Under the pieces are notes generated by a model. The model was not told the origin of the DNA. It searched no databases and was given only the letters and a program-made list of their open reading frames with translations. From a virus (lineage: Duplodnaviria; Heunggongvirae; Uroviricota; Caudoviricetes), in IMG/VR virus record IMGVR_UViG_2651869749_000005: a stretch of 20,059 bases of DNA, one strand, 5' to 3'. The translations under genes were made by a program, and so were the position numbers. Position 1 is the stretch's first letter, and each line of letters opens with the position of its first letter. Positions 15-19,935 of the stretch are shown here, piece after piece.

Positions 15-87
15 CGCAAGACTGGCATGCGGAATAATTAAATAACAAACAGCCTAAAGCAATCACCGTCATAGCTGGCGGTGATTA

Positions 88-1370: not shown

Positions 1371-1375
1371 GGGAT

Positions 1376-2074: not shown

Positions 2075-2403
2075 CAGTTCACCACCTGTTTAAACTCTGC
2101 GCTGAACTCAACACGCAACATACTGACCTGCGACGACCATTTTGCGCAGGTCACCTTTATCTGCCTGTAACCATAAGGCGGCGTCCACAGAAAAGCCTTC
2201 CAGCCCCCGTGCTCAGCCAGAAACGACTCCAGCGCCGTGGCCTCCTCACGGGAGACAGACAGCGTCACGCTGTACGTTTTCAGGTCAGCGTTCAGCCCGG
2301 CAGGCGCACGCTGGGAATAGCCATCACCAAAGCGCACCTCCCTGACGGAAGGAGCCGATGTCACATCCATCCCGGGTTTCACTTTCCAGCGGAAGGTTTT
2401 CAT
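2074..2403 (-). CDS. M: Minor tail protein M (lambda gpM-like)
   Basis: 109-aa ORF (lambda M is 109 aa) immediately downstream of the tape measure gene with a 4-nt overlap. Confidence 0.88.
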   Translation of the reverse strand: MKTFRWKVKPGMDVTSAPSVREVRFGDGYSQRAPAGLNADLKTYSVTLSVSREEATALESFLAEHGGWKAFLWTPPYGYRQIKVTCAKWSSQVSMLRVEFSAEFKQVVN

Positions 2404-4979
2404 CGTCCACCTCCGGAGAACAGGCCACCATCACGCATCTGTGCCTGAATTTCATCACGGGCACCCTTGCGGGCCATGTCATACACAGCCTTCAGCGCCT
2501 GTGGTCCAATCTGCCCGTTCGTGCCGTCGTTGTTAATCACCACATGGTTATTCTGCTCAAACTTCCCGGACGCCTGCGACCGGCTGTCCGCCAGACTGCC
2601 CGGTGTACCGACATAACCGCCGGTGGCATAGCCGCGCATCAGCCGGTAAAGATTCCCCACGCCAATCCGGCTGGTTGCCTCCTTCGTGAAGACAAACTCA
2701 CCACGGTGAACAATCCCCGCTGGCTCATATTTGCCGCCGGTTCCCGTAAATCCTCCGGTCGCAAAATGGAATTTCGCCGCAGCTGCCTGAATGGCTGTAC
2801 CGCCTGATGCGGATGCGCCGCCACCAACAGCCCCGCCAATGGCGCTACCGATACTCCCGACAATCCCCACCATTGCCTGCTTAAGCAGAATTTCTGTCAT
2901 CATGGACAGCACGGAACGGGTGAAGCTGCGCCAGTTCTGCTCACTGCCGGTCAGCATCGCCGCCATATTCTGCGCAATACCATCAAAGGTCTGCGTGGCA
3001 GCACTTTTAACCTGCGACATACTGTCCGTGGCACTCTCTTTCCACTCGCTCCAGCCGGACTTCAGGCCTGCCATCCAGCTCCCGCGAAGCTGGTCTTCAG
3101 CCGCCCAGGTCTTTTTCTGCTCTGACATGACGTTATTCAGCGCCAGCGGATTATCGCCATACTGTTCCTTCAGGCGCTGTTCCGTGGCTTCCCGCGCTGC
3201 CTGCCGGTCAGTCAGCCCCCGGCTTTTCGCATCAATAGCTGCCCGTTTTGCCCGTTGTTGCTGTGCGAATTTATCCGCCTGCTGCGCCAGCGCATTCAGA
3301 CGCTCCTGATACGTCACCTTGTCGCCAAGTGCCGCCAGCTGGCGTTTGTACTCCAGCGTCTCGTCTTTATGCGCCAGCAGGGATTTCTCCTGTGCGGATA
3401 GCTGACGACGTTGTGCCGCCTCCTCCAGTACCGCGAACTGACTTTCTGCCTTCCACAAATCCCGGCGCTGCTGGCTGATTTTCTCATTCGCTCCGGCATG
3501 CTTCTCCAGCGTCCGGAGTTCTGCCTGAAGCGTCAGCAGGGCAGCATGAGCACTGTCTTCCTGGCGCTCGCCTGCAGACACCTTCACGCCGGACTGTTTC
3601 GGCTTTTTCAGCGTCGCTTCATAATCCTTTTTCGCTGCCGCCATCAGCGTGTTGTAATCTGCCTGCAGGATTTTTCCGTCTTTCAGTGCCTTGTTCAGCT
3701 CTTCCTGCCGGGCGGTATATTTCTCCAGTGGCGTCAGCAGGCGCTCATACGCCTTCTGCGCCTCTCCGGTATACTTCAGCTGTGACGACTCACGCTCAGC
3801 CCTGTCCCTTGCCGCCAGTTCACCGGCTTTTTCCATATCCGACTGCAGCGTTGCCGCTGCCAGACCCAGACGGGCATTTTCCCGGTCATCCCATGCGCCC
3901 TGAAGGTTGGCCCGGAAAGAGGAGGTTTTACCGCGGCGCTGGCTCCGACTCTGGTACCACTGCCATTTTTTATCCGCCTCATCAAATGCCTTCTGCGCAC
4001 TGGCGAGCATATCCGCTGAGGATTCCGGACGACCGATATCCAGAATGGCATCCCACATCGATTTGAATGCCTTCCCTGTTTTATCCGCCCAGGTCTCCAG
4101 TGTTCCCATGTTTTCTTTCAGGCGACGGGTCTGCTCATCAAAGCCTTTCGTGGCGATATCGTTCGCCGCCTGTAAGGCTCCGGCCTCGTCTCCGGAACGC
4201 TGCAGCTGTGCAACATACGCAATCTGCTCTGCCGTCACGTTACGGAACTGGCGCGCCATCGCCATCAGCCCCGACGTCGGGTCAGTGGTCAGTTTTCCGA
4301 TAGCCTCTGCCACCTTGTCCATCTCCACACCGGATGCAGACGCAAAACGCGCGACACTCTGGTTGATGGCATCAAACTGTTCACCACCACGCACACCGGC
4401 ATTCACCAGGGCTGCCAGTGACTCTCTCGCCTGGTTAAACGTCAGCCCTGCCGCCTGCCCGGCTCTTGAGAGCGTCAGCATACGATCGGCAGTCAGTCCG
4501 GCCTGATTACCGGAAAGAACCAGGGTTTTATTAAACGCTGAAAGCGTGGAATCCCCCTGGTACCAGGCGTACGCCAGCGCACCTGTCGCCACCGCCAGCG
4601 AGGTGACCCCGACCATCGGCAGGGTGATCGCACCGGCAAGCCCCCTGAACATGGGGATCATCCCGCCGAAGGAGTCCTTCACCTGACCGCCCTGTTGCAG
4701 CAGAATAAGCCAGGGATTCTGACCACCGGCAAGCTGCGTGGCGATATCCGTAAACTGTGCGGGCAGGGTTCGCATGGCCGCTTTATACTGCCCGACGGAA
4801 ATCCCGGCTTTTTGTGCAGCCAGCGCCTGGCGGCTCAGGCCCTGTTCAACAGCACTGGCGGTTTTTCTGGCGTCGGTATCCAGACCTGAAAAATGACGCC
4901 TTACCCGGCTCATCTGCTCATCGAAACGGACAGCATCCAGACTCAGGTCAATAACAAGATCACCAACCGGCTGGGACAT
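2400..4979 (-). CDS. H: Tail tape measure protein H
   Basis: 859-aa ORF (lambda H is about 853 aa); long helical Ala/Gln/Arg-rich central region, Gly-rich C-terminus; sits between G/T and M as in lambda. Confidence 0.92.
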   Translation of the reverse strand: MSQPVGDLVIDLSLDAVRFDEQMSRVRRHFSGLDTDARKTASAVEQGLSRQALAAQKAGISVGQYKAAMRTLPAQFTDIATQLAGGQNPWLILLQQGGQVKDSFGGMIPMFRGLAGAITLPMVGVTSLAVATGALAYAWYQGDSTLSAFNKTLVLSGNQAGLTADRMLTLSRAGQAAGLTFNQARESLAALVNAGVRGGEQFDAINQSVARFASASGVEMDKVAEAIGKLTTDPTSGLMAMARQFRNVTAEQIAYVAQLQRSGDEAGALQAANDIATKGFDEQTRRLKENMGTLETWADKTGKAFKSMWDAILDIGRPESSADMLASAQKAFDEADKKWQWYQSRSQRRGKTSSFRANLQGAWDDRENARLGLAAATLQSDMEKAGELAARDRAERESSQLKYTGEAQKAYERLLTPLEKYTARQEELNKALKDGKILQADYNTLMAAAKKDYEATLKKPKQSGVKVSAGERQEDSAHAALLTLQAELRTLEKHAGANEKISQQRRDLWKAESQFAVLEEAAQRRQLSAQEKSLLAHKDETLEYKRQLAALGDKVTYQERLNALAQQADKFAQQQRAKRAAIDAKSRGLTDRQAAREATEQRLKEQYGDNPLALNNVMSEQKKTWAAEDQLRGSWMAGLKSGWSEWKESATDSMSQVKSAATQTFDGIAQNMAAMLTGSEQNWRSFTRSVLSMMTEILLKQAMVGIVGSIGSAIGGAVGGGASASGGTAIQAAAAKFHFATGGFTGTGGKYEPAGIVHRGEFVFTKEATSRIGVGNLYRLMRGYATGGYVGTPGSLADSRSQASGKFEQNNHVVINNDGTNGQIGPQALKAVYDMARKGARDEIQAQMRDGGLFSGGGR

Positions 4980-5831
4980 ATCTCACACCTCCCGGAATCC
5001 CCGCTGAAGCCATCATTAATGCGGCATCATCCACCATGATATCCGCCACATCCGCAGACAATGAAATATCGCCCCCTCCGTCCCCACCGAACCGGACGCC
5101 TCCGGCAAGTCCTGCCGCTTTCTGCATCAGCATTTTGTCCTCATCCGGCCTCTCCACCTGCTCTTCCTCACGCCGGGGGGCAAGCAGGCTGAAGTCCGAG
5201 GGATGCATATCCGGATCGCAAAAAAACAGGCTGAGTACGGCGTACGTCAGCCCGGAAAAATGCATATCCAGCTGGGTATCGTGAAAATAATGCGTGCGGT
5301 AAAAATGTCGCCAGTCGGCATATTCGGTGGATGTCATCCTGGCAAGCATGGCGCGCCAGTCAGGCCTCCCCATCTCACGCGCCAGTCTGAGGGCAAAATT
5401 CAGCTCGCCGTCGAAGACTTTCCCGCAGAAAAATCATCATCAGTAAGCGCGTTATTTTTCGCCACTTCAGTAATATCAGTATCCGGACGAACAGCTTCGA
5501 TCATCCCGGACAGGCACAACACCACGTCTTCCGCCCGGGCAATGGCATCGGCAGGCCAGGTGGTGAGCACTTCCTGCTCTATCTTCATCACGGCCTCATT
5601 CATTGACGGTGACTGCGTTTTCTGTGGATGGTTATGCCACAGGGACATCGCCACCAGAAACGCGCCGGTTCTGACAAGATCTTCCACGCTCACCTGCAGG
5701 TTACCGCTGGCTTCAGCCTGTTCTGCACGTCGTTTCAGCAGGGCAAGATGCTCGATACGCTGCAGCGCAGACAGTTCGGAAAGCGTGACGGACACACCGT
5801 TATATTCAAATTGTTCGGTTTTCAGAAACAT
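4960..5831 (-). CDS. GT: Tail assembly chaperone GT, the programmed -1 frameshift fusion of G and T
   Basis: The T reading frame (contains MGRPDWRAMLARMTSTEYADWRHFY) is in the -1 frame relative to G and is open from the slippery site to position 4960. Heptamer GGGAAAG at minus-strand 5424..5418 lies 6 codons before the G stop. Hand translation across the shift gives ...SAGK/VFDGELNFALRLAREMGRPDWRAML. Confidence 0.85.
5400..5831 (-). CDS. G: Tail assembly chaperone G
   Basis: 143-aa ORF MFLKTEQFEYNGVSVTLSELSALQRIEHLALLKRRAE... between V and H; lambda G is 140 aa. Confidence 0.9.
   Translation of the reverse strand: MFLKTEQFEYNGVSVTLSELSALQRIEHLALLKRRAEQAEASGNLQVSVEDLVRTGAFLVAMSLWHNHPQKTQSPSMNEAVMKIEQEVLTTWPADAIARAEDVVLCLSGMIEAVRPDTDITEVAKNNALTDDDFSAGKSSTAS
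5418..5424 (-). promoter_or_regulatory. Ribosomal -1 frameshift slippery heptamer G GGA AAG (G to GT)
   Basis: Plus strand 5418-5424 is ctttccc, i.e. GGGAAAG on the minus strand, in-frame as G|GGA|AAG in the G frame, just upstream of the G stop. Confidence 0.85.
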
Positions 5832-5844
5832 GTATTACCTCCGT

Positions 5845-6597
5845 TTACCCGGCAGCGCCCGCTTCAGTAACGGTGACTTCAGCTACCGTGGCAAACTGAC
5901 CATTACCGGAAATCACGGGGATACTCACTTTTCCAGCCTTAACCCCCGTCACAGTGATCACCATATCTTTCACAGCAATGGTTCCCGTTGACGGATCGGC
6001 GGAAACCGCTCTGAACGTCTTGTCGGTTGCACTTTCCGGCTCAAAAGAAACAGTCAGGGTGGTTGTTTTTCCTTTTTCCACGGTACCGGATTTCGGCGTC
6101 ACCTTAATTGCAGTGACCGGCGTAATTTTGCTGCGTTCTTCCGCCACGGAAGGTTTGCCCACGTTGGTCACTTTCACCGTGCGGGTGATCACTTCTTTCG
6201 CCGTCACGGCCTTACCGATACTGCTGACCCAGCCACGAAACACATCCACCGTGCCGTTCGGAAAACGGATTTTATAGGCCCGCACATCCCCGCTTTCAAA
6301 CCAGCCTATAAGCCCTTTCTGACCTTCCTCTCCCGGTTTCCAGGCCAGTGTAAAACTGGTATCACCTGCAGATTTCTGTCCCTGCCCGGTCGCGCTCCAG
6401 TCAGCGTCCTCATCATCCAGGTAGTTATCATCGTAGGATTCTGCCGTCATCTCGCCCGGCGTCAGATCCTTCACCTTAGCCAGTCGCTGCCAGTCAGCGT
6501 CTGACAACGGGTTTGCATAAGCATCACCCTTGCCGGTGTAAACCCACAGAGTGGTACCGGCACCTTTTACCGGCTCCAGGGGATTTGGTGTTGGCAT
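5845..6597 (-). CDS. V: Major tail tube protein V with C-terminal Ig-like domain
   Basis: 250-aa [36 protein letters not shown]...; C-terminal region rich in T/V/K beta-strand repeats ([30 protein letters not shown]) consistent with a Big_2-type domain. Confidence 0.9.
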
Positions 6598-6604
6598 ATC
6601 GTCC

Positions 6605-7000
6605 TCACATCTCGTATGTAATGGAATAAGTCAAATCCGCAGAGCTCCATAACGCCATATCGTCATCACGACGATAGTCATAGCCCTGCTGAACCATCGT
6701 GGTAATCATCCCTGCCAGTGCAGGGATCGCGGACATCGCCGGATAAATCCGGGACTCCATCCACGAATCCAGCTCTGAATCCGGCACCTGAGCAGGCAGG
6801 AAAACTTCAATATGCAGTGTGGCCCGCCAGGTATCTGCATCCAGCTCTTCACCGGTATACTCTGCATCCGTCAGATAAACTGCGACCGCCGGAAAATCCT
6901 CTTCGTCAAAAACAACGGGGCGACCATCAAACAGCGTCGCCCCGTGTTCATGCTGCTCGAGTGCATCCAGCACTGCGGCACGAATATCAGTATGTTTCAT
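6605..7000 (-). CDS. U: Tail terminator protein U
   Basis: 131-aa ORF (lambda U is 131 aa) between Z and V; overlaps the Z stop by 4 nt. Confidence 0.88.
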
Positions 7001-7530
7001 CGTTTTATCGCAATCCTCAGTTGTTGTTTCAGCGCGGATGCCAGTTCTCCGGGCAGGCGTTCACGCCGGATACGGTCAACATTCTCATCAAACGCCTGTT
7101 TCAGTGGGGCCGCCATCGGGATTTTCACCACATCAATAGGGTAACGGTTTTTCCCGGCCACACGCTGCATGACATGCCAGCGACCGTTTTTTAATCGCTG
7201 AATGAATGCCCGCTGATACCGATGCTGACCGGCTTTAAGTATGCTGTTCGGACGACGGCCCAGCATCCTGATCCCCAGCTTAATCACTGGAAGATCACCG
7301 CGGTTAACGATAATTTTTGCGTTCGGATTTCTGACCGTCGCCCGTTTCAGTCTGGACCGTTCCTTAACCAGTTTCCGGCGTACCTTTGTCTCCCGGGCAA
7401 CCTGTGATGAAGACTGATTAATCGCCGTTGTGGCCACGCGGTTAATGGCCATTGCTGAAGCCGCCGGAATGGCGTTTTTACGAACCCGGCTCAGATTGTC
7501 AATCGCCTGATCAAGCCCTTTTATCGCCAT
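6997..7530 (-). CDS. Z: Tail completion protein Z
   Basis: 177-aa ORF in the lambda Z position between FII and U; basic protein. Product assigned by synteny and size. Confidence 0.8.
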   Translation of the reverse strand: MAIKGLDQAIDNLSRVRKNAIPAASAMAINRVATTAINQSSSQVARETKVRRKLVKERSRLKRATVRNPNAKIIVNRGDLPVIKLGIRMLGRRPNSILKAGQHRYQRAFIQRLKNGRWHVMQRVAGKNRYPIDVVKIPMAAPLKQAFDENVDRIRRERLPGELASALKQQLRIAIKR

Positions 7531-7545
7531 AATTTCACCCTGCGT

Positions 7546-7899
7546 TTATCGTCGCCGGTTAACTGCGGGTGGTTGACCACGGTTGAGCCAGAGATAACAG
7601 CTGCCCCCGTCATCCGGAGAAACACGATCCACCCAGAATATCTCACCATTAATGGTCAGCGTGTCACCACGCCGCACGGCACGAACCGTATCCGTCCGCA
7701 CAAATAATGACGGGCTGCTTCCTTCAATACGGACCCCGCCACCGGCAAACCCCAGCGACTCCGGATCGTCAAAAACACCCTGAACTTCGCCGCCACACTG
7801 TACCCCTGAGGTGAACTGCGCACAGAGCCCCATCACTTCAACAATCGTGCTGTCCACCCCGGCAAGGGCGGCATCAAAGGCATTCTGAAAATCACGCAT
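7546..7899 (-). CDS. FII: Head-tail connector protein FII
   Basis: The ORF is open from 7935, but the start is placed at the internal Met (MRDFQNAFDAALAG...) by alignment with lambda FII (MADFDNLFDAAIA...), giving 117 aa as in lambda. C-terminus FWVDRVSPDDGGSCYLWLNRGQPPAVNRRR is near-identical to lambda as I recall. Confidence 0.85.
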   Translation of the reverse strand: MRDFQNAFDAALAGVDSTIVEVMGLCAQFTSGVQCGGEVQGVFDDPESLGFAGGGVRIEGSSPSLFVRTDTVRAVRRGDTLTINGEIFWVDRVSPDDGGSCYLWLNRGQPPAVNRRR

Positions 7900-8266
7900 A
7901 AACAGCCATTCCGCCATCAACGTGTGTTTTTGCATCTGAGGACATAATCAGAATCACCCGACCAACATCCGCAAGCTCAACGGATTCCCCCGTTTCACCA
8001 TCAATGCCACAGAGATGGAGGCAGGTCAGAACTCTGACGCGCGTTAACGCACCGGATGTATTCTCACGAACATCATGTTTCGCTGTTTCCCGCTCCCGGA
8101 TCACCGTATCCCCAACCTGAACATCCTCGCCGGATGACTGCATTTCCTCTTCCCATTCAGCTACCCGCTGCGCTATCTCTGCAGCACTCCCGGATATATC
8201 CGGCTCACGCCCCAGAATCAGGGCCAGTTCATCAAGCCGTTTCAGATTTTGCTCTTTCGTTGCCAT
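7892..8266 (-). CDS. FI: DNA packaging protein FI
   Basis: 124-aa acidic ORF between E and FII; lambda FI is 132 aa. Assigned by synteny and size, sequence similarity is modest. Confidence 0.7.
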   Translation of the reverse strand: MATKEQNLKRLDELALILGREPDISGSAAEIAQRVAEWEEEMQSSGEDVQVGDTVIRERETAKHDVRENTSGALTRVRVLTCLHLCGIDGETGESVELADVGRVILIMSSDAKTHVDGGMAVYA

Positions 8267-8318
8267 ATCATCCCCCTGTGAAAAAAAGACACGGGAGCAT
8301 TTCGCCCCCGCTCACGGA

Positions 8319-9347
8319 TTATTTCACCTGTACCACCACAAACTCATCCGGGTCCGGCAGCACCATCAGCGGCGCGGACTGCGTCATGGTGAATTCACGG
8401 GCCGGATCGCCCACGGTCTGCCAGTGTTTCGGATAACGGGAAGAGGCCACCACACCTTCGGACAACGCCTGCGCATCCTGAATGGCACCGTAACAACGAA
8501 TGCCCTCTGCTGCAGTATTCCCCAGAACCAGCGAGCCCTCCGGCAGATAACGTTTTTCGGTACCGTCCTCTGCCACATAAGACGTTTTCGCCACCACAAT
8601 GGCCAGATCGCCGTAATACCCTTTGAAGGACACCACCGCCCCCAGGTCTTTCACTGCCGTTTCGAGTTGTGAATTTGAGCCGCGACGGGTATCCAGTTTT
8701 TCACGGAACAGCTTAAAGCCATTCAGCAGACGCCAGACGATACCGTCCATAATGGCAATATTCACAAGACCGCTGGCCTGGTCGCAGTAGAGGTCAATAT
8801 CATGTGTAGGATCGAACGTGTCACGATCCTGTTTTGACCACTCCTTACCACTACCCTGAGTGATGTTATTCTTCGTCGACCTGCCAAAATCAACCTCAAT
8901 TTTCTCGAACTGTTCCCCTTCCATGGTGTATTTGCCATACAGCACGGCATTCACCGCCTGCATTTCTTCCACCTGCACAATAGCGTGCTCTTCCTGTTTG
9001 AGGTTATCAGTGATGATACGCAGACGACGGTAGGCCGGGTCGTTCAGCTGAGCCGGATCTTCACCGGGAAGGCGTTCAACCGCCTGCTGGTAATTAAATT
9101 CGTGTTTCGGCTTGACGTAGCCCGGACGTAACACGCGGGTTTCACCCCCACGATGACGCAGCACTTTTCCTTCAACGACCGGGGAAACATAGGCCGCCAC
9201 CGGCGTTTTTCCGGTAATTTTGTCCAGCATCACCTCTTCGGTATGGAAATTCACCGTACGGCGGAAAAACAGTTCCAGAAACAGCGCACGAAATTTAACT
9301 TTTTGTTCGGTATAACCGAGCAACTGGCGGGTCGTAAACAATCCCAT
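8319..9347 (-). CDS. E: Major capsid protein E
   Basis: 342-aa ORF (lambda E is 341 aa) MGLFTTRQLLGYTEQKVKFRALFLELFFRR...; AAGGA Shine-Dalgarno 8 nt upstream of the ATG. Confidence 0.92.
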   Translation of the reverse strand: MGLFTTRQLLGYTEQKVKFRALFLELFFRRTVNFHTEEVMLDKITGKTPVAAYVSPVVEGKVLRHRGGETRVLRPGYVKPKHEFNYQQAVERLPGEDPAQLNDPAYRRLRIITDNLKQEEHAIVQVEEMQAVNAVLYGKYTMEGEQFEKIEVDFGRSTKNNITQGSGKEWSKQDRDTFDPTHDIDLYCDQASGLVNIAIMDGIVWRLLNGFKLFREKLDTRRGSNSQLETAVKDLGAVVSFKGYYGDLAIVVAKTSYVAEDGTEKRYLPEGSLVLGNTAAEGIRCYGAIQDAQALSEGVVASSRYPKHWQTVGDPAREFTMTQSAPLMVLPDPDEFVVVQVK

Positions 9348-9378
9348 AAATCAGTTCCTTTCATTCAGAAATAAATAT

Positions 9379-9402
9379 CCTCCGGCATAGCCGGAGGTTT
9401 TT
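9379..9402. terminator. Perfect 8-bp stem hairpin with T5 tail (CCTCCGGC-ata-GCCGGAGG-TTTTT); likely the right-end subterminal hairpin of the IS200 element
   Basis: Direct reading; lies about 30 nt upstream of the E start and about 80 nt downstream of the tnpA stop. Confidence 0.6.
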
Positions 9403-9478
9403 CAAATGCGCCTGTAAGGCTCTCTTACCAGCCGCGCCCTAACAGGCGCACACGATCTGACATTTGCATCCAACTTCC

Positions 9479-9937
9479 TTACTTACGGCCCGTAAACGGG
9501 CTGCCCGGATAGGGAATCGATAACTGCTCTCCCATTTTATCCTCTTCAAGCTGGTGCTTTATGTAATCCTGTATCTTCGCCGTGTTCTTACCCACCGTAT
9601 CGACGTAATACCCTCTGCACCAGAACTCCCTGTTCCTGTATTTGAATTTCAAATCCCCAAACTGCTCGTAAAGCATCAGACTGCTTTTCCCTTTCAGATA
9701 TCCCATAAAGCCGGATACGCTCATTTTGGGCGGGATCTCCACAAGCATATGGATATGATCTGCACAGCATTCAGCTTCCAGAATCCGTACGCTTTTCCAC
9801 TCACACAGCTTTCTCAAAATACTGCCTATTGCTCTACGCTTCTCTCTGTAGAACACCTGTCTTCGGTATTTTGGCGCAAAAACTATGTGATATTTACAGT
9901 TCCATCGGGTGTGCGCTAAGCTCTTTTCGTTCCCCAT
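9479..9937 (-). CDS. tnpA: IS200 transposase TnpA (Y1 HUH transposase)
   Basis: 152-aa protein from the internal Met (MGNEKSLAHTRWNCKYHIVFAPKYRRQ...), with HIHMLVEIPP (HUH motif) and a C-terminal Tyr region; matches IS200 TnpA of Salmonella/E. coli from memory. The ORF-track N-terminal extension to 9988 is rejected. AAGGGGG SD 5 nt upstream. Confidence 0.88.
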   Translation of the reverse strand: MGNEKSLAHTRWNCKYHIVFAPKYRRQVFYREKRRAIGSILRKLCEWKSVRILEAECCADHIHMLVEIPPKMSVSGFMGYLKGKSSLMLYEQFGDLKFKYRNREFWCRGYYVDTVGKNTAKIQDYIKHQLEEDKMGEQLSIPYPGSPFTGRK

Positions 9938-10049
9938 TGGGACCCCCTTTTGATTTCTTGTTTGACACTTGCAGTTGCCAGACCGCAAGGTGTTTTAACA
10001 AATCAAAAGGGGTTTTAATAACTGGCTCAAAGCTGAAAGCTTTCCAGAA

Positions 10050-10072
10050 CCCCCAGCCTAGCTGGGGGTTTT
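10050..10072 (+). terminator. Hairpin CCCCCAGC-cta-GCTGGGGG followed by TTTT; candidate left-end IS200 terminator hairpin
   Basis: Direct reading; IS200 is known to carry a terminator-like hairpin near the left end upstream of tnpA. Confidence 0.55.
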
Positions 10073-10086
10073 CTGTGCACAATCAG

Positions 10087-10108
10087 TCAGGCCACCGCGG
10101 TGGCCTGA
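10087..10108. repeat. 22-bp perfect palindrome TCAGGCCACCGCGGTGGCCTGA
   Basis: Verified by hand as its own reverse complement; starts 8 nt downstream of the D stop codon. Confidence 0.9.
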
Positions 10109-10115
10109 TAACGTG

Positions 10116-10463
10116 TTACGGCAGCGCCGCGTGACTCAGGGCAGTGCCAGCAAAGGCATTTGCCTTTTTGTGTTCATCCACACTGTCAGGCCAGCGGATT
10201 GCCTCCGTCGCAAAGGTCCCCGACTTGTAATACGTCAGTACCGTCTCCGTGCCTTCAAGCGGCAGTACCAGTATGCCAACCGCACTACCGGCTTTCTGTC
10301 CATCCCAGACCACCAGTTTCCCGGTGGCTTCATCCAGCATCAGGGGCGTCAGAGCCGGTGTTGCAGAAGAAATCCCGCTGCTGCCTGTGGCGGTATGAGC
10401 CGGATCATTACCAGCAAAAATACGTACTTCCGCACGCTGTTCAGTGATGGTTTTCGTCACCAT
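10116..10463 (-). CDS. D: Head decoration protein D
   Basis: 115-aa ORF with PAHTATG...LTPLMLD...KLVVWDG...AVGIL...TYYKSGTF...AFAGTA, matching lambda gpD motifs (lambda D is 110 aa). Confidence 0.9.
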   Translation of the reverse strand: MVTKTITEQRAEVRIFAGNDPAHTATGSSGISSATPALTPLMLDEATGKLVVWDGQKAGSAVGILVLPLEGTETVLTYYKSGTFATEAIRWPDSVDEHKKANAFAGTALSHAALP

Positions 10464-10499
10464 TTTGTTAAAACCTCATATTGATGGTCAGCACTGACT

Positions 10500-12005
10500 T
10501 CATGGCATGGCCATGAGCATTTTCACGTCCGCATCACCGTCTGCTGACGTCTGTGACACGCCACCCCGCACCGCTGCCGGTGAATGATTCGCCATGAAAT
10601 GTTCAAACAGGGCGGTTGTGGATGCAGAGACCGGTTCGGCCTTACCTGATCCCGCAGCCAGCACAGCCCGGGCGTTCTCCACGGTCATTCCCGGGCAGGC
10701 CGCCAGTTTTTCAGCCTGCGCTTCTGCCCCTTTTGCCTCATCCAGGGTCATGATCTGATCACGAAGTGAGGGCCCGGCATTCGCCTGCGGTGAGGCAGCC
10801 AGGATCGGGCGGGCTTTTTCCACCGTCATCTCCGGCATCGCCGCAAGCGTTGCCGCCAGTTGTTCACGACCTTTCGCTTCTTCACACGCCATAATGCGCT
10901 CGGCTTCACTCTGCGCGGATGCCACCGGCTGCTGTGGTGCCGCCGCGGCCAGAATCGCCCGGGCCTGTTCAACGCTCATGCCCGGTTGCCCTGCCAGCAT
11001 CGTGGCAAGCTGTTCACGTCCTTTCGCTTCCTGGCATGTCAGGATCCCCATCACTCGCTGGTTCTCCTGCGCGGCGGCTTCCGTTGCAGTTAATTGCGGC
11101 ATAGTGCCTCCTCTGACATTACTGTTCAGCGCCGTGGCCATCACACTGATGGCATCCGACGCATTGATTAATTCATCCGCCAGCCCGGCCTCAATGCCGG
11201 ACTGACCTTCAAAAACAGCGGCCTCTGTTCCCGTGACTGCATCAACAGACAGACCGGTAAACATCGCCACTTTTTCGGCAAACATCCGGCGCGCCGCATC
11301 AATCCGCTGCTGCATGTCCTGACGCACCTCTGCCGGTAAGGCTTCAAACTGATTGCCATCCACCTTATGCGCCCCGGCGTAAATCAGCGTGATATCCACT
11401 CCGGCCTGCGCCAGATGACCGGCATAGCTGACATGACTCATCATCACGCCAATGGAGCCGATACGGGATGTCTGGGTAACCAGCCGTCGGGAGCAGGCCG
11501 ACGCCAGCAGCATGGCTGCAGAACAGGCCGTGTCATTGCACAGTGCCCAGACCGGCTTCTGCTGGCGGAGGCGGTAAATCATGTCAGCACAGTCAAACGC
11601 ACCGGCGGCCTGCCCGCCCGGACTGTCAATGTCCAGCAGTACGCCCCGCACCTGGCTATCCGCCATTGCCTGCTGAAGACAGGCGACAATGCCGTCATAG
11701 CCTGTCATTCCGGAAAATGGCCGCATCCCCCCCAGCCGGTGCACCAGCGTGCCTGTCACCGGCAGTACAGCAATACCGTTCACCACCCGGTAAACACGGG
11801 CCGGTCGTTTACCTCCGGCCATGTACTCGTCCGTTTCAGCCAGCATTCCGGGAGCATCAAGCTGTACCTGCTGTTGTGGTACCGAAAGACTTGCTGCCCC
11901 CATCTCGCGCCCGAGCGCGCAAAAGAAAACCCGCGCATAGGCGGGCTCCAGAAGCAGCGGTTCATTGAATGCTGCGGCAATAATGTGTGAAAGATTACGT
12001 CTCAC
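10500..12005 (-). CDS. C: Head maturation protease C (S49/ClpP-like) with in-frame C-terminal scaffold (Nu3-like) region
   Basis: 501-aa ORF; N-terminal two-thirds matches lambda C (AFNEPLLLEPAYARVFFCAL, GIAVLPVTGTL, MTGYDGI, VWALCNDTACSAA, SIGVMM, ITLIYAGAHKVDGN). C-terminal third holds three tandem copies of a module that lambda carries once. Confidence 0.88.
   Translation of the reverse strand: MRRNLSHIIAAAFNEPLLLEPAYARVFFCALGREMGAASLSVPQQQVQLDAPGMLAETDEYMAGGKRPARVYRVVNGIAVLPVTGTLVHRLGGMRPFSGMTGYDGIVACLQQAMADSQVRGVLLDIDSPGGQAAGAFDCADMIYRLRQQKPVWALCNDTACSAAMLLASACSRRLVTQTSRIGSIGVMMSHVSYAGHLAQAGVDITLIYAGAHKVDGNQFEALPAEVRQDMQQRIDAARRMFAEKVAMFTGLSVDAVTGTEAAVFEGQSGIEAGLADELINASDAISVMATALNSNVRGGTMPQLTATEAAAQENQRVMGILTCQEAKGREQLATMLAGQPGMSVEQARAILAAAAPQQPVASAQSEAERIMACEEAKGREQLAATLAAMPEMTVEKARPILAASPQANAGPSLRDQIMTLDEAKGAEAQAEKLAACPGMTVENARAVLAAGSGKAEPVSASTTALFEHFMANHSPAAVRGGVSQTSADGDADVKMLMAMP
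10617..11051 (-). repeat. Three tandem in-frame repeats of about 46-52 codons inside C (EAKGxE...L..A..PGMTVE.AR.ILAA)
   Basis: Protein residues about 319-370, 371-417 and 418-463 are recognisably similar; the DNA is correspondingly repetitive. Confidence 0.8.
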
Positions 12006-13587
12006 GTGGTGTTGTCTCCTCTTCCGGCCTGCGACTCTCCGCTATCTGCTGCTGATACGCCTGCGCTATCCACACCGGACGTGAGAGTCCGGCTTTTTCC
12101 CGCTCTGCAGATTCCCTGACCTGCTGGCGGAAAATGTCCTGATAATCCTCGCCCATCAGCGCCAGCTCTTTCTCATACGTGCTCAGTCCGGAATCAATAC
12201 GCATCACTGATTCCTGAACCTCCTTGAGCCCGTCAATGGCCATTCTTCCGGCACCAATCCACTCAGCCCGCGACCAGGCTGAACGCGCCTGATAAAAATC
12301 AAAACGCGCCCGTGGCGGACGAATAATCCCCCGCAGAAGTGCCTCTTCCAGCCAGCAGGAAAACATCTGCGTGGCCAGCCGGGACGCTATAAATTTTCGT
12401 CGTCCCATAAAATAGCGCCACGACTCATTGGCGGAGGCACGGGCACTTGAATAACTGACCTTCGAGTAATCACGGGACAACTGTTCGTAGGAAACGCCAA
12501 GACCGGCGGCGATATACCTCAGCAGCGCCTGTTCAAGCGCCGAAAATCCATTGTCTGAATCCTGCGCAGTCTGCAGTTTCAGATCATCCCCGGGGAAAAG
12601 GTGCGGAATTTTGACACCACCCAGCGTCACGTTATTCGTGTCATACCAGCTGGAGAACTTCTCCAGAATATTAATAAGCGGATTATCCTTCTGCCCCTGC
12701 GGCGCACCGGCGATATATTCAAAGGCCTTTTCGGTATCAAGTTCACTTTCAATCGTCGCTGCATACATCGCCTTAACAATGGCTGACTGAAGCTGTGTTG
12801 CCTGCAGGGAATCGAGCATCTTCAGCCGTTCCATGACGCTGTAAAACTGGTTGGCCCCACGGGTCTGCCCGTCCTCCACCGGCTCGAAAATATGCAGCAT
12901 GGCCGGACGCCCGGTGGGAAGTTCACGCGGGATCCGTTCCCATCGTCCACTACCAGAGAACGGAAAATCATCCTCACAGATATGGTACCCAACGGCACGC
13001 CCATATCGATCGACCTCCACCCCGGCCCGCAGAAAACGGTTCCCGATACCATGTCCTGGCGTGTCCACCCGTTTCGGACTCACGGCTTTAAAACGCGTAC
13101 GAAACAGTTGCGTGCTCTCCGTATCCCAGACCGGCTGCACAAAGATTTCGCCGTTAAACGCATGAACGCCCACACCTTCACGGATAAATTCCGTAAACGT
13201 GCGTTTCCCTTCCACGTCGATCTCACCAAACATCCCTTCTGCGTATTCTGACCAGGCCGCCTCCACCTCATCGACAAAACTTTTTGCCGCGGTCTCCCGC
13301 ATCCCCAGCCAGCGCCAGTTCGGGCGGTAGCTGATAAGAAACATATGCCCGACAATGTGATCCTTATGCAGGGCCACCGCATTGGCCGCTATCCCGTTAT
13401 TGCGCACCAGATCATCTGCACGGGCATTCCCCAGACGCAACGCGGGCAGCAGGGCCGCATCGGCACTCTGCGAAGGTGGCAACCACTCTGCCATTTGCCC
13501 GCCAAATCCTGCACCGCCCCCGTTGTAGCTGAGACTCTCCCGAAGCGGAACGCCGTTCACATCAATCAGGACAGGCTTTCGTTTCAT
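11995..13587 (-). CDS. B: Portal protein B
   Basis: 530-aa ORF (lambda B is 533 aa) in the lambda position between W and C; overlaps W and C ends. Confidence 0.9.
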   Translation of the reverse strand: MKRKPVLIDVNGVPLRESLSYNGGGAGFGGQMAEWLPPSQSADAALLPALRLGNARADDLVRNNGIAANAVALHKDHIVGHMFLISYRPNWRWLGMRETAAKSFVDEVEAAWSEYAEGMFGEIDVEGKRTFTEFIREGVGVHAFNGEIFVQPVWDTESTQLFRTRFKAVSPKRVDTPGHGIGNRFLRAGVEVDRYGRAVGYHICEDDFPFSGSGRWERIPRELPTGRPAMLHIFEPVEDGQTRGANQFYSVMERLKMLDSLQATQLQSAIVKAMYAATIESELDTEKAFEYIAGAPQGQKDNPLINILEKFSSWYDTNNVTLGGVKIPHLFPGDDLKLQTAQDSDNGFSALEQALLRYIAAGLGVSYEQLSRDYSKVSYSSARASANESWRYFMGRRKFIASRLATQMFSCWLEEALLRGIIRPPRARFDFYQARSAWSRAEWIGAGRMAIDGLKEVQESVMRIDSGLSTYEKELALMGEDYQDIFRQQVRESAEREKAGLSRPVWIAQAYQQQIAESRRPEEETTPRET

Positions 13588-13790
13588 AACCTCACTCCCA
13601 GCGGACGACGGCGACGGCGGGTTGTCCCCAGTACCAACTCAGCATCATTGATCGCACGGTTAAGCTCATCCAGAGAGGCCGCCGTATATTCAATTCTGCG
13701 ACCATCTTTCTGGACAGACACCACCCGTTTACCAGTTAATAAATCAAGGCGCGCCTGACGCAGCGCCTGCAGTTCAGCGACTGTAACCAT
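13584..13790 (-). CDS. W: Head-tail joining protein W
   Basis: 68-aa ORF (lambda W is 68 aa); LTGKRVVSVQKDGRRIEYTAASL resembles lambda W [22 protein letters not shown]. Confidence 0.88.
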   Translation of the reverse strand: MVTVAELQALRQARLDLLTGKRVVSVQKDGRRIEYTAASLDELNRAINDAELVLGTTRRRRRPLGVRL

Positions 13791-15702
13791 TCACTCCTCC
13801 GGACAGCTTCGCTGCCAGTTCTTTAAGGGTTGGCCGGGTCGTCTCTTCTTCCCGGGATTTTGCCAGTACAGCCAGATCAAGCTGCCAGCGTTGCACGGAC
13901 ACACGTAATGCCGCGTAGGCATACACCAGGCAGTCCAGCGCTTCGTTACGCCGCTTTTTGTTATCCCACAGCAGACGCATCTTTCCTTTTTCCCACTTCT
14001 CCACAAGCTCTTCCGCGACCAGTTGCTGTGCCTCTGTCTGCGAAAAAATCTCCGGATCATCAGGAAAACGGATGGCATACAACGTGGCTTCATCCACAGG
14101 CGTGGGATCGGCTTTCATACGGGCATAGAGAATTTCTTTTGCGGTGTCCGTCCCCACTTCACACAGATACACGCCCCGCTGATTGCGGGTTTTTGGCATG
14201 GTGATCACCGGCTTGCCATAGACAGATGCGCCTTTTACCGGCAGCACCCGGAAAACACCGTGTTTTTTTGACCTCTGATAAACGATTTCGCCATCGATCC
14301 CCCCGGTGTCCCAGCAGACACGGGAAATGGTCATTTCGGTGCCATCCGCATGGCGGTATTTTTTGTTGATCGCCGCGTCCACACGTAACAGCGTCTCTTC
14401 CTCATCGGGACGCCCCATAATGATGATTTTATCCACCAGAAAGGCTTCCTCTCCCGGAGCCCATCCCCAGACATACATCTCAAAACGGTTTCGCTGCGAG
14501 TCAATGCCCGCCGTCAGATAAACCACCCGGACAGGTACCGCCGCCGTGTAATGAACAACCTTATCCATCAGCACCTGGTGATCGAGTTTTTCGCCCACGG
14601 CCTCTTCCCAGGTTTCGCCCAGCGTGGTGTTCACAAAGGTTTTCACGCCGTTGGGATCTTTCAGTGCATCCAGCCAGTCATAGACTATCTGTACCCAGGT
14701 GGTAAACGGACTGTACGCCGTCCAGATATGGAACGTGATGGAGCGCGGCGGCGGAATTTCATCACCCCGGGCGCTGAAAAACGTCAGGCCGTCACGGGTC
14801 CACATACCCGTATTTTCACAGATCCACCGCCCGTTACTCTGGTCCAGTTCAGACTGATGAATCACACAGCCATGATGCTCACAAAGGTAGAAAACGCTTT
14901 CGGGGCAGTCCTTCTCCCATTTAAGCCCAAAAGGCGTGGACTCATCGCCAAATTTCAGATACTGCTCCTCCCCACAGTGCGGGCAGGGCACATAAAAACG
15001 CATAAAATGCGCCGACTCGTTGGCCGCTTTTTCGATCTGGCAGGTGCCTTTGATTTTAGGCGTCGAGCCGCGAATGGATTTTGGCCATACAGAGCCCTCA
15101 ATACGCTTATCCCCCAGCAGGGTTGGCGAGCCCTCTTTTTCGACATCCGGCTCGAACGAGGAAAGCTCGTCATAGCAGACCACGTCCACGGATTTTTCAC
15201 GGTAGTTTTTTGCTGCCGCACCACCCAGGCACCAGAAACCCACACGTGACGTAAACCTTTTTAATGTCAGCGTGTTATCCCTGTGCTTACGCCCCAGCCA
15301 GGGGGAAAGAATTTTCAGACAGGGAACATCCCGTAATGTCGACTCCACATGAGACTTCATAAAATCTTCAGCGGCAGAATCCGTAGGCTGAAACAGAAGA
15401 CTGTTACGATTTTTATGCTCAATAAAGTAACCAATAACGCCCATCAGCATTTTGGTGTAACCGACACGAGCTGATTTTATAAGATTAATCGTGCGGATCC
15501 GGTCATTACCCATGCAGTTCATTATTGCCACCTGAAACGGCAACGTCTTCCACCGCCCGGCAAGATAAGAAGACTCCGGAGGTAAATAATAATTTTGATC
15601 AGCCCATTCAACGGTGGTGACAGGCAGTGGGCGTAAAAGACCGCGAAGTGCCACGCTACAAACAACAGCAAAGTTATTTAGCTGCTTCTCTGAGGTATTC
15701 AT
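13774..15702 (-). CDS. A: Terminase large subunit A
   Basis: 642-aa ORF (lambda A is 641 aa); [25 protein letters not shown] (ATPase region), [14 protein letters not shown] and WDTGGID motifs match lambda gpA. Confidence 0.93.
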
Positions 15703-16222
15703 CCAGCATCTCCGGTAACTTCTCTGCCGTTGATGCGCATCGGTTTGCCGCCTTTGCTATATCGGTTTTCAGGAAATCAAGCATGGCGGGCGTCAGTGCC
15801 GGAAACTGTCTCTGCATGGACAATGGAATGGAGTCAAGAATGGCAGAGATCTCCTGCGCCAGTCTTCCCAGAGCAAAAAGGCAAAACCCTGTATCAATGA
15901 CCTGTCCACTGTCACGGGCATTTTTCAGTTCCTGTGCATCTGCCTGTGCCTTCGTCAGTCGGTAGCGTTCGTAATCAATGGTGCCGGGCTGAAGGTCAGA
16001 TTCACTGGCAGCCCTCAAGTCTTCGACCTCTTTACGGAGTTTTTCATTTTCAATATCAGCTTCGCGCTGCGCATACCATTCGATCGCCTTCGCAGAATCA
16101 AAGATGACCTCAACGCCTTTTCCTCCACCAGATATCTGAGGGAGCCCCTGGGTTTGCCAGCGATCAATCGTGCGTATATCGACATTAAAAATTTCAGCAA
16201 GCTTCTTTTTATTAACATTCAT
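15674..16222 (-). CDS. Nu1: Terminase small subunit Nu1
   Basis: 182-aa [59 protein letters not shown] closely parallels lambda Nu1 (181 aa); AAGGA SD 9 nt upstream; cos lies immediately upstream. Confidence 0.93.
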
Positions 16223-16450
16223 TCAGCAATTCCTTATCAAAAATCAGTTACGACATGAAATGCCAAAAAAAAACAGATTTTTCATCATTCTGATGTCGTT
16301 TCTTTCTTGATAGTTATTTATTTAAAAACAATACGTTAATAACAAGAAGAACTGACATGCTTTTTCCCGGAAAATTTTCATAAATAGCGAAAACCCGCGA
16401 GGTCGCCGCCCCGTAACCTGTCGGATCGCCGGAAAGGACCCACGAAAATG
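16223..16450 (-). promoter_or_regulatory. cos: cos packaging site: cosB (16223-16399), cosN cohesive end (16400-16411), cosQ-like flank (16412-16445)
   Basis: Reverse complement of 16367-16411 is GGGCGGCGACCTCGCGGGTTTTCGCTATTTATGAAAATTTTCCGG, identical to the first 45 nt of lambda as I recall. Reverse complement of 16412-16445 (CGTGGGTCCTTTCCGGCGATCCGACAGGTTACGG) matches the lambda right end. Confidence 0.9.
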
Positions 16451-16618
16451 ATAATAATTATCATCTACATGAGGTTTATCACGACATGTGTGTACGCCAT
16501 CAAACCACGAGAAATAATCAATTATTACGCAGGTATCGTATTAATTGATCTGCATCAAATTAGCGTAAAAGCAACATCAGATAATACAAATCAGCAACAC
16601 TGAATACGGGGCAACATT

Positions 16619-16843
16619 ATGTCATCAAAGAACAGAACCCGCAGAACAACAACCCGCAACATCCGATTTCCAAACCAGATAATTGAACAAATTAACATCG
16701 CTCTTGACCTGAAAGGTTCAGGTAATTTTTCAGCGTGGGTTATTGAAGCCTGCAGAAGAAGATTAATTAATGAAAAATATTCTCAATTTGTACCCAACAA
16801 AGACAAACACGACCAGAGCACCTGTTCAGACAGGTTTACTTAA
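16619..16843 (+). CDS. Small ribbon-helix-helix-like DNA-binding protein (possibly DUF3950-type; unverified)
   Basis: 74-aa plus-strand ORF; basic N-terminus, then RNIRFPNQIIEQINIALDLKGSGNFSAWVIEACRRRL, which fits a beta-strand/helix/G-x-S/helix RHH fold; GGGG 8 nt upstream of the ATG; followed by an intrinsic terminator. Confidence 0.6.
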   Translation: MSSKNRTRRTTTRNIRFPNQIIEQINIALDLKGSGNFSAWVIEACRRRLINEKYSQFVPNKDKHDQSTCSDRFT

Positions 16844-16861
16844 ACGACTTATATATGACAC

Positions 16862-16890
16862 AAAAAGCGACCACTAAAGTCGCTTTTTCT
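16862..16890. terminator. Bidirectional intrinsic terminator between the convergent RHH and perC-like genes
   Basis: AAAAAGCGAC-cactaaa-GTCGCTTTTTCTT: 6-bp GC-rich stem flanked by an A-run and a T-run. Confidence 0.75.
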
Positions 16891-16924
16891 TATGGTAACA
16901 GGCAATAACTCTCTCAGATATTTT

Positions 16925-17239
16925 TTAGCATTTTTTTGACCGCGCGTTTCCGGACGTATTCTGTTCTCCTGTCCCTTTATATCGTCGGAATACCCGCCGC
17001 TCTTCAAATCCCATTCCCAACTCAGAATGTAGTCTGTTGACCGCTTGTTTTATTTCGGTCAGGTTCACCGGTGAAACCGGAGTCCGGCGCGCCTTACGCA
17101 AACACTCTGCTCGTTTCTGTGCCGCCACTTTTCTTTTCTGGTCATCACTTAGCTGTACCATCACTTTTGCCCATCGTTCAGCTGCTCTCCGGTACAGTCC
17201 TTTTTTCTCCAGACATTCTGCCACGTGATCATGTAGCAT
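16925..17239 (-). CDS. PerC-family transcriptional regulator homolog (Pch-like)
   Basis: 104-aa ORF MLHDHVAECLEKKGLYRRAAERWAKVM...; the LE.KG.WRRAA.RW signature matches my recollection of PerC/Pch regulators of EPEC/EHEC. Strong GGAGG SD 6 nt upstream; preceded by a roughly 460-bp AT-rich leader. Confidence 0.65.
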   Translation of the reverse strand: MLHDHVAECLEKKGLYRRAAERWAKVMVQLSDDQKRKVAAQKRAECLRKARRTPVSPVNLTEIKQAVNRLHSELGMGFEERRVFRRYKGTGEQNTSGNARSKKC

Positions 17240-17704
17240 AAGTGACCTCCGATTATCTACAGACTGCCATCCTGAATTTACCTTCCCTTAATGAAATAAC
17301 AATAAAAAACAAACCACGCAAAAACAATAAAACAACACACAAAAAAAACTAAATAATAAACAAAAATAATCACCTTATTTTATTATTTTTTGAGGGAGCA
17401 ATTACTGAACAAAAAACGCTGACTATATACTCAAAACCAAACAACTATTCTGCCAATCAGGTATCATGGCAACACACGGAATTACCGTGTTTTTGCCTTC
17501 TCTGCCCATACAATACGGGCATATACTTCATTCTCTATTGTAATATTTCTATCCATGTGCCCCACTCCATTTACCTGTAAATAATATTCAAAATATTTAT
17601 CACAGAAATCGTTTTTGGCCATGAACTGAGCACACTATAAAGTCCGGAACTGACTCTTTGTTAAATTACCTTAACGTTACCAGTAACACCTTCATAACAA
17701 AACA

Positions 17705-18172
17705 TCACGGTATACACTGGGTACGGATATATTCCTGTGCTCCTTCCAGTTGCTTCTGCATTGCCATCAGCCGTTCTCTGAGGATGAAATAATCCCGTTC
17801 AGCGGTGTCTGCCAGTCGGGGGCCGGTTGCATTATCCACGCCGGAGGTGCCGGTGGCTTCACGCACGGTACCGGAGCAGGTGGCGTTGATCCGCAGGCGC
17901 TTACGACCAGCGGCAACATCAGCACGCAGAGTTTCATTTTCAGCTCTCGCATCGGCTAATTCCCTCGAGTATCTGGCATCAAGTGCAGCGACATCACGCT
18001 GGCGTATCTGCATATCAGTAATTGTCGCGTTCGCCAGCTCCAGCTCACTGGCTTTTTTATCGCGCTGCTCTTTGTAGATGATGGCGTGATCACGGTAATG
18101 ATTCAGCCCCAGACTAAGCGCACCACAGGCCACCAGCAGGACAATGATAACCACGCACAGAACACGGTTCAT
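17705..18172 (-). CDS. Rz: Spanin inner-membrane subunit Rz
   Basis: Start placed at the internal Met (MNRVLCVVIIVLLVACGALSLGLNHYRDHAIIYKEQRDK...), 155 aa versus lambda Rz 153 aa, with near-identical core (NHYRD, ITDMQ.RQRDVAALDA, VREAT..SGVDNA..PRLADTAERDYF.LRERL..MQKQLEG). Confidence 0.9.
   Translation of the reverse strand: MNRVLCVVIIVLLVACGALSLGLNHYRDHAIIYKEQRDKKASELELANATITDMQIRQRDVAALDARYSRELADARAENETLRADVAAGRKRLRINATCSGTVREATGTSGVDNATGPRLADTAERDYFILRERLMAMQKQLEGAQEYIRTQCIP
17767..17952 (-). CDS. Rz1: Spanin outer-membrane lipoprotein Rz1, embedded in the +1 frame of Rz
   Basis: 61-aa ORF MRELKMKLCVLMLPLVVSACGST... with lipobox VSAC and Pro-rich mature region CVKPPAPPAWIMQPAPDWQTPLNGIIS, closely matching lambda Rz1. 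Confidence 0.88.
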   Translation of the reverse strand: MRELKMKLCVLMLPLVVSACGSTPPAPVPCVKPPAPPAWIMQPAPDWQTPLNGIISSSENG

Positions 18173-18173
18173 A

Positions 18174-18287
18174 TCACCACCAACGGATTGCCCAGACCAG
18201 AACAGCAATGGCCACAATACGAATGGCAAAAGCTGCCGCTCTTGTTAAATCCAGACTGGCTGGCGTCTCCACTTCAATGCCTTTCAT
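18174..18287 (-). CDS. Hypothetical 37-aa small membrane peptide just upstream of Rz
   Basis: Hand-translated: MKGIEVETPASLDLTRAAAFAIRIVAIAVLVWAIRWW; GAGG SD 9 nt upstream of the ATG; single predicted TM segment with a Trp-rich C-terminus; stop TGA is 1 nt before the Rz ATG. Below the 60-aa cutoff of the ORF track. Confidence 0.4.
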   Translation of the reverse strand: MKGIEVETPASLDLTRAAAFAIRIVAIAVLVWAIRWW

Positions 18288-18389
18288 AATGGACAACCTC
18301 AGAAAGAATCTTTTATACTTCCTCACAGGGAAAGTACCTCCCTACCCATAATTTCTCCCTTGCCTTACTCAAGGTCAGAAAACACAAAA

Positions 18390-18507: not shown

Positions 18508-19041
18508 CTATCTGTCGATGTCCCTGCACGCCAGCGCGCTCTCCTGGTCACGCCGTGAGACCTGACCGTAGCAATTATTTGAACGGATACGGCAGTCTCT
18601 GCCACCGTCCTTAATCCACCAGCGAATCGCCTCACAGGCACCTTTTCGATCGCCTGCATTAATTCGTTTATAAAACGTCGACGGGAAGCACTTACCGGGG
18701 CCAATGTTGTACGGACAGAATGACGCGATCCCCGCTTTCTGGGGTTCGGTCAGCGGCACCCGGATGTTTTTCTCCACCCATGCCAGCGCCTTGTCACGTT
18801 CGATGGCATTAACCCGGTCGCATTTTTCCTTTGACAGCTTCATGCCAGGAATAACAGGCTTACCATCCACCAGAATGGCACCACGGCAGATGGTCCAGAT
18901 CCCCGCACCATCACGGTATGCCGTGGTGTGGTTACCTTCCTTTTCATCCAGAAACTGGTCGAGGATTTCAGGCGCAGAAGCACCTGCACCAATCAGCGCC
19001 AGAACGGCAGCCGACAGGCCGTATTTTATTTTTTCGTTCAT
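18508..19041 (-). CDS. R: SAR endolysin R (GH24 T4-lysozyme-like with N-terminal signal-anchor-release domain)
   Basis: 177-aa ORF; N-terminal weakly hydrophobic Gly/Ala-rich segment YGLSAAVLALIGAGASAP (SAR-like), then E...D...T catalytic pattern (KEGNHTTAYRDGAGIWTICRG) typical of phage lysozymes. Confidence 0.88.
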   Translation of the reverse strand: MNEKIKYGLSAAVLALIGAGASAPEILDQFLDEKEGNHTTAYRDGAGIWTICRGAILVDGKPVIPGMKLSKEKCDRVNAIERDKALAWVEKNIRVPLTEPQKAGIASFCPYNIGPGKCFPSTFYKRINAGDRKGACEAIRWWIKDGGRDCRIRSNNCYGQVSRRDQESALACRDIDR

Positions 19042-19728: not shown

Positions 19729-19935
19729 CTACTCTCCCCGCGCCACCTTACGCTTATCTTCTTTAATCTTGAAATAAAGGTTAGTCAGATACGTCAGCAG
19801 GCCAAACAGCAGACTCCCCAGCACACCGATTGCCACCCACTGGGACGGAGAGACTTTGTCCAGCAGCTGCAGTAACCAGTATCCCGTCCCCACCGCTGAC
19901 GTGGTGTATGACACACCCGTTGTGATTTTTTCCAT
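19729..19935 (-). CDS. S: Class II holin, phage 21 S-type pinholin
   Basis: 68-aa [71 protein letters not shown]; two TM segments and a charged C-terminus, closely resembling S21 as I recall; GGAGA SD upstream. Confidence 0.88.

Follow-up and report, generated by a model that had tools for sequence, protein, structure and literature searches.

In EHEC and atypical EPEC, Pch is a master switch through which prophage content bears on LEE type III secretion. Full expression of ler and espA, as well as adherence, depends on the group 1 pch genes (PMC6265319). At the molecular level, Pch attaches to the LEE1 region, where it breaks up the nucleoprotein complex formed by H-NS, StpA and Hha and so lifts repression; as reported in the same study, double deletion of hns and stpA abolishes the effect of Pch (PMC4764244). 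The pch genes themselves receive inputs from LrhA, Lrp/butyrate and LeuO (PMC4456613), as well as from NtrC and sigma-S (PMC10714755), and pch transcripts rise upon SOS induction (PMC6265319). Translation is also controlled: pchA is self-inhibited by an anti-SD sequence located within its own coding sequence, and when oxygen is low the small RNA DicF relieves this inhibition (Melson and Kendall, 2019, as summarised in PMC7769764, PMC7873438 and PMC7308464).

The DNA analysed here, to which we refer as the window, is a stretch of 20,059 nucleotides from a tailed-phage record (IMG/VR IMGVR_UViG_2651869749_000005). A first-pass annotation of its letters had proposed that a minus-strand ORF in the segment between Rz and cos belongs to the PerC/Pch family, judged from its N-terminus. 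We therefore compared this ORF, which comprises 104 codons plus a stop and begins with the N-terminus that had been quoted, with family profiles and described proteins. The Pfam PerC profile (PF06069) matched it at E 3.8e-44, with a score of 149.3 bits against a cut-off of 22.6, which is far beyond chance; residues 1-89 of the ORF align with positions 1-89 of the 90-position profile, so that the match is essentially full-length. The ORF was also matched by phrog_994 (E 1.4e-45). None of its 104 residues differs from those of PchA of E. coli O157:H7 Sakai (ECs_1091, NP_309118.1; 100% identity), and the DNA from the DUF3950 gene through Rz (window 16762..18300) is 99.8% identical to the pchA locus of the Sakai prophage Sp4, with three mismatches in 1,539 bp. 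The exact protein is deposited as WP_001303878.1, annotated as a PerC family regulator, in O145:H28 strain RM13514, and its UniRef name is "PchABC family transcriptional regulator".

The family core is likewise intact. When PchA was aligned with EPEC PerC (pMAR2) and with homologues from an E. coli plasmid, Salmonella and Klebsiella, the N-terminal residues L10, E11, G14, Y16, R17, R18, A19, A20, R22 and W23 proved invariant, as did R36, C46, G75, R85 and Y87 further along. Neither of the outcomes named beforehand as refuting the family call, a missing PerC match or a loss of conserved residues, was observed, and the first-pass proposal was correct in its main points. We conclude, with a probability of roughly 0.93, that the feature is a group 1 pch copy (PchA/B/C) of attaching-effacing E. 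coli, carried as a moron in the Rz-to-cos slot of a lambda-like prophage. It is an ordinary and already known copy, that is, an experimentally characterised virulence regulator in its usual prophage position. Since more than one copy in a given genome can specify the very same protein, the paralogue letter A, B or C is not assignable.

Structural searches added little to this assignment. A PDB sequence search with the Pch protein gave no match. An AlphaFold2 model, built from a shallow alignment of seq­uences (seven in all; the homologue search gave only 16 close relatives), was all-helical and of low confidence (pLDDT 66.9, pTM 0.31), with no fold assignable, and a Foldseek comparison of this model with the PDB returned nothing below E = 6. 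As side observations, residues 7-47 of the protein show a weak, sub-threshold likeness to NF033650, the AraC negative regulator (ANR) family (E 0.046; 13.6 bits vs a cut-off of 32), and several PHROG "transcriptional activator" families match its N-terminal 50 residues only.

The features of the locus are collected in Table 1. Their order is Rz/Rz1, ORF46, pch, terminator, a convergent DUF3950 gene, cosN and Nu1. The position between Rz and cos that had been assigned to the ORF is borne out by the exact lambda cosN 12-mer, which lies 178 bp upstream of the Nu1 ATG, and the accompanying remark that lambda carries bor at this place is also correct, since bor directly follows Rz in lambda. The strong GGAGG ribosome-binding site was found as described, 6 nt before the ATG, and it is invariant in all five aligned copies of the cassette, the most diverged one included. 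In an RNA fold of 16850-16930 on the minus strand (MFE -17.3 kcal/mol, z -2.0), a hairpin followed by a U-run lies ~35 nt past the pch stop codon; the same hairpin sequence also reads as a terminator on the plus strand.

Table 1. Features of the lysis-to-packaging region of the window, with the identity of segments to A25, the most diverged copy of the cassette (88.5%)
Feature	Coordinates	Strand	Basis or remark	Identity to A25
P21-type holin	19729..19935	-		
Lysozyme	18508..19041	-		
Rz spanin gene, last late lysis gene upstream of the cassette	17705..18229	-	Pfam Phage_lysis, E 1.2e-48	
Rz1, embedded in Rz	17767..17952	-	Pfam Rz1, E 1.7e-21	
Rz end to ORF46 (82 bp)			96-100% conserved	96%
ORF46, 46 aa	17482..17622	-	phrog_2157, E 2.7e-37	98.6% (best-conserved segment)
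Segment following ORF46	17481..17400			92.7%
Promoter-like site TTGCCA-17-AATAGT	17472..17444	-	consensus scan, 9/12	
Extreme AT-rich tract	17262..17399	-	composition	69%, with indels
SD region				95.5%
SD GGAGG	17250..17246	-	6-nt spacer UCACUU to AUG	
pch CDS, group 1 PchA/B/C regulator	16925..17239	-	PF06069, E 3.8e-44	94.0%
Predicted DicF pairing site in CDS, +79..+106	17134..17161	-	RNAduplex	
Anti-SD segment +89..+100, overlapped by the predicted DicF site	17140..17151	-		
Bidirectional intrinsic terminator hairpin A5-GCGAC...GUCGC-U5, between pch and the DUF3950 gene	16862..16888	both	RNA fold	
DUF3950 / YlcI-YnfO family gene, 74 aa, convergent with pch	16619..16843	+	Pfam PF13132, E 1.3e-17; NCBIfam NF041551	
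cosN cohesive-end 12-mer GGGCGGCGACCT	16400..16411	-	exact lambda match	
Nu1	15674..16222	-		
Large terminase subunit	13774..15702	-		

The DUF3950 gene is also present in Stx phages that are without pch, and it is part of the phage backbone, outside the pch insert. In Stx2a phages, matching Rz and DUF3950 flanks enclose other small ORFs. Thus, two properties expected of a moron were seen for pch, namely a slot for variable cargo between backbone genes and a terminator of its own. Loci that encode the identical protein, at 10 independent genomic places, share the same context downstream of the lysis genes with a constant spacing from Rz to pch, and the block from mid-Rz to DUF3950 is at least 98% identical across loci, even where lysozymes and terminases differ. 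In one such locus (L011, 4001..7539), a near-identical cassette lies beside a different lysozyme, an HNH-like gene and a Terminase_2/TerL packaging module in place of Nu1/A; the presence of the cassette on this different backbone therefore indicates that it moves between phage backbones by recombination. When PchA and ORF46 were searched by tblastn against 50,697 phage genomes, the cassette was found in no complete genome of a deposited isolated phage, and the only matches were EDL933 fragments and weak PerC-like matches in phages Pollock and Fels-1.

The host background was addressed by a survey of 5,426 complete E. coli genomes, with escN as the marker for the LEE. The pch CDS was present in 673 genomes (median three copies, maximum five) and escN in 697; a query in which the two were concatenated matched 699 genomes, which leaves 671 with both. 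escN was consequently found in 671 of the 673 pch carriers (99.7%) vs a base rate of 12.8%, an association (odds ratio ~6e4) whose nominal p-value is inflated by lineage non-independence, the genome set being dominated by related EHEC lineages. Conversely, 96.3% of LEE carriers have pch. An attaching-effacing (LEE) host for the window is very likely on this statistical inference from complete genomes, and the suggestion that the prophage sits in such a background holds in that statistical sense. The window itself has a best match of 95% among complete E. coli genomes, and the nearest draft contig is 99.6% identical over window positions 1-14980.

Several side observations concern the wider genomic surroundings of these prophages. 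In relatives of this prophage, which encode the identical tape-measure protein, the tail fibre genes are followed by type III effector genes, namely those for an NleB-type glycosyltransferase, an OspG/NleH-type kinase and NleF (L022, 21667..22580; L023, 20822..22338), in keeping with the link to the LEE. Fifteen pch places in complete genomes are on plasmid-labelled records, and several plasmid records of 59-420 kb code for the same PchA sequence; either phage-plasmids or errors of assembly may account for such records. Within the window, the head decoration gene (HDPD, 10116..10463) is separated from the major capsid gene (8319..9347) by an IS200-type element (9479..10070, minus strand). This element is made up of a Y1 transposase (9479..9988; Pfam Y1_Tnp, E 5.3e-38) and a match to the Hfq-binding RNA STnc490 (Rfam, 9947..10070; 146 bits), and is present in the relatives L022 and L025 and absent in L023.

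Exactly 465 bp separate the start codon of pch from the stop codon of Rz, a spacing shared by every related locus examined. In the genome survey, this upstream stretch turned up in precisely those 673 genomes and 688 records that carry the CDS, at 1,878 vs 1,877 places, and neither was found elsewhere even at blastn sensitivity. Judged by this co-occurrence, the stretch is a constant component of the pch cassette. The first-pass annotation had described an A/T-homopolymer-rich region of about 460 bp. Its length and the presence of A/T homopolymer runs are as described, whereas uniform AT-richness is not: only the 138-bp tract at 17262..17399 is extreme, with 26.8% GC vs 53.1% for the window and 49% T on the sense strand, and the rest of the 465 bp has 35-41% GC. 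This tract is also the fastest-evolving part of the cassette (Table 1), and one-base homopolymer indels distinguish copies of the cassette from one another. The block is accordingly better described as a composite than as a demonstrated single leader, with a conserved distal half that holds ORF46 and the promoter-like site, the variable 138-bp tract, and a conserved SD region.

TTGCCA-17-AATAGT is the sole promoter-like site on the pch strand, and neither hexamer has changed in A25 or MFDS, two diverged copies; a consensus promoter scan of the region gave fewer sites than were found in shuffled sequence. If used, this putative promoter would give a 5' leader of ~200 nt. We found no pchA transcription start site in the accessible literature. 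The AT-richness of the upstream region suggests that pch may be subject to H-NS silencing. H-NS has been reported on all known virulence genes of phage-like elements in Sakai (PMC4764244), an article in which we met no mention of the region upstream of pchA in particular. Rfam searches of the whole window at the gathering threshold, and of 16200-18300 at E values up to 5, gave chance-level matches only and identified no RNA family within the pch upstream region or close to it. Separately, we considered a candidate antisense RNA of ~100 nt to the leader, with a promoter-like sequence at 17357..17386 on the plus strand and a hairpin plus T-run at 17474..17490, and rejected it, both elements being mutated in A25 and MFDS.

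Other explanations were weighed against these data. With regard to the gene itself, the ORF might encode a relative of PerC whose role lies outside the LEE, as has been reported for PchD and PchE, or be an inactive remnant. Some Pch paralogues indeed do not activate ler (PMC6265319), and PerC-family genes also occur on LEE-less Salmonella and Klebsiella plasmids. However, the protein encoded in the window is identical to Sakai PchA, the allele of the functional studies; it has the full 104-aa length, with start, SD and terminator intact; pch identity is at least 99% in 687 of the 688 records; and nearly all pch carriers also have the LEE. We consider this explanation to be highly improbable, and retain the assignment to a group 1 pch gene with a role in LEE control. 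With regard to the upstream block, it had been proposed that the whole 465 bp is one long transcribed 5' leader of pch, in which case the promoter would lie at or inside the 3' end of Rz. Such a leader would fit with the inseparability of the 465 bp from pch in all 1,878 copies and with the strong conservation of the 82 bp between Rz and ORF46, and late read-through transcripts would in any case hold the whole stretch. Yet the only promoter-like site on the pch strand falls downstream of ORF46, an open frame of 46 codons lies within the stretch, and conservation is strongly uneven, with individual segments ranging from 69% to 99%, a pattern that points to separate elements. We therefore regard a single long leader as quite unlikely and prefer the composite block.

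That same open frame leads to a further explanation, in which ORF46 genuinely encodes a small protein and the cassette consists of two genes, ORF46 and pch, possibly co-transcribed. ORF46 is open in all copies examined, is the best-conserved segment (98.6%) in the otherwise diverged A25 copy, has a PHROG family of its own (phrog_2157), always co-occurs with pch, and appears in many GenBank entries under the label of hypothetical protein. Against its being a gene, there is no clear SD in the sequence, and the protein has no Pfam or NCBIfam match; it is skipped by PGAP and by the gene caller of the contig collection, and is without annotation in RefSeq in nearly all genomes. Furthermore, 14 nucleotide changes among the copies result in 11 amino-acid changes, a ratio that gives no hint of purifying selection at the protein level, and searches beyond the pch cassette brought up no diverged homologue. 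A two-gene cassette is, in our opinion, unlikely, but a little less so than the single long leader. More speculatively, the composite 465-bp block could be more than a leader: its distal half, which is better conserved than pch, might encode a small co-factor protein or serve as a platform for regulator binding, and homopolymer slippage in the 138-bp tract might set paralogue- or strain-specific expression of pch and the LEE. We give these ideas little credence at present.

We also asked how the published translational control of pchA is reflected in the window. In an in silico fold of positions -200..+315, the SD region is predicted to pair with +89..+100 (17151..17140) with a probability of ~0.59. 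When the 5' 25 nt of DicF, taken from the copy in Sakai Sp4, were paired with +79..+106 (17161..17134) by RNAduplex, the predicted energy was -28.5 kcal/mol; shuffled DicF sequences gave -18.5 +/- 2.3 kcal/mol, and none of 300 was as good. Blocking the DicF site in silico did not clearly free the SD, and a second AAGUGGC segment at +110..+116 can replace the anti-SD. A 201-nt fold around the start codon of pch was no more stable than its shuffles (z -1.2). The published SD/anti-SD hairpin and DicF pairing site appear to be recovered, with limited support, by these predictions, in a sequence that is identical to the studied Sakai allele. In Sp4 itself (L002), a DicF copy (5733..5784; Rfam, 76.9 bits) lies next to dicB, and pchA is at 23366..23680; Sp4 carries both, and one prophage therefore supplies the sRNA activator together with its target.

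From the above, the following course of events can be proposed. In the lysogen, transcription would start from the promoter just downstream of ORF46, near 17437, and produce the ~200-nt leader. The U-rich middle of this leader corresponds to AT-rich DNA that would be suited to H-NS binding, and the adjoining block would receive the LrhA, Lrp/butyrate, LeuO and sigma-S/NtrC inputs. In the transcript, the SD region would pair with the anti-SD ~90 nt into the CDS, such that translation is self-inhibited until pairing of the prophage sRNA DicF relieves it under low oxygen. As published for the identical protein, Pch would then bind AT-rich DNA at the LEE1 (ler) promoter and loosen the H-NS/StpA/Hha silencing complex; Ler would be made, and the LEE type III secretion system together with prophage-borne effectors would be turned on, again as published. 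Upon prophage induction, Q-antiterminated late transcription should read through pch, because the gene is co-directional with the late genes and lies just after Rz, and such read-through would fit the reported SOS-induced rise in pch transcripts.

The pch gene, its protein, its prophage location and its regulation by DicF, LrhA and H-NS-related factors have been published since 2004 and are already known, so that no new biology is claimed here. The presence of pch flags this prophage as part of the virulence network of an attaching-effacing pathogen. What the present analysis adds is modest: the genome-wide count of pch and LEE (671/673), the fixed 465 bp upstream of the gene, and the sharply uneven conservation of that stretch.

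The closest described system is Sakai PchA (ECs_1091, Sp4), with its paralogues PchB and PchC, which shares with the window the same protein (100%), the 465-bp spacing to Rz, the SD and the terminator. They differ in that the lysis-pch block of Sp4 is inverted and severed from DUF3950, cos and Nu1 by IS629, whereas the window has an intact late-gene order beside cos and Nu1. PerC of EPEC E2348/69 (pMAR2) belongs to the same Pfam family, has the same N-terminal core LE-KG-YRRAA-RW as the Pch of the window and, like Pch, activates LEE1/ler according to the literature. In contrast to Pch, to which it is 45% identical, PerC has 89 aa and is without the C-terminal 15-residue tail, and it is encoded on a plasmid as the third gene of the perABC operon rather than as a prophage moron. 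PerC-family genes were also seen on large Klebsiella and E. coli plasmids (L018, 1..573; L019, 1..573), immediately downstream of ssb (single-stranded DNA-binding protein), a context that differs from both the prophage and the perABC contexts. Finally, lambda bor occupies the same slot as pch, directly after Rz/Rz1 and before cos, and is likewise a cargo gene that is expressed in the lysogen and benefits the host; but its product is an unrelated protein, an outer-membrane lipoprotein, and bor runs counter to the late genes, on the other strand, while pch is co-directional with them.
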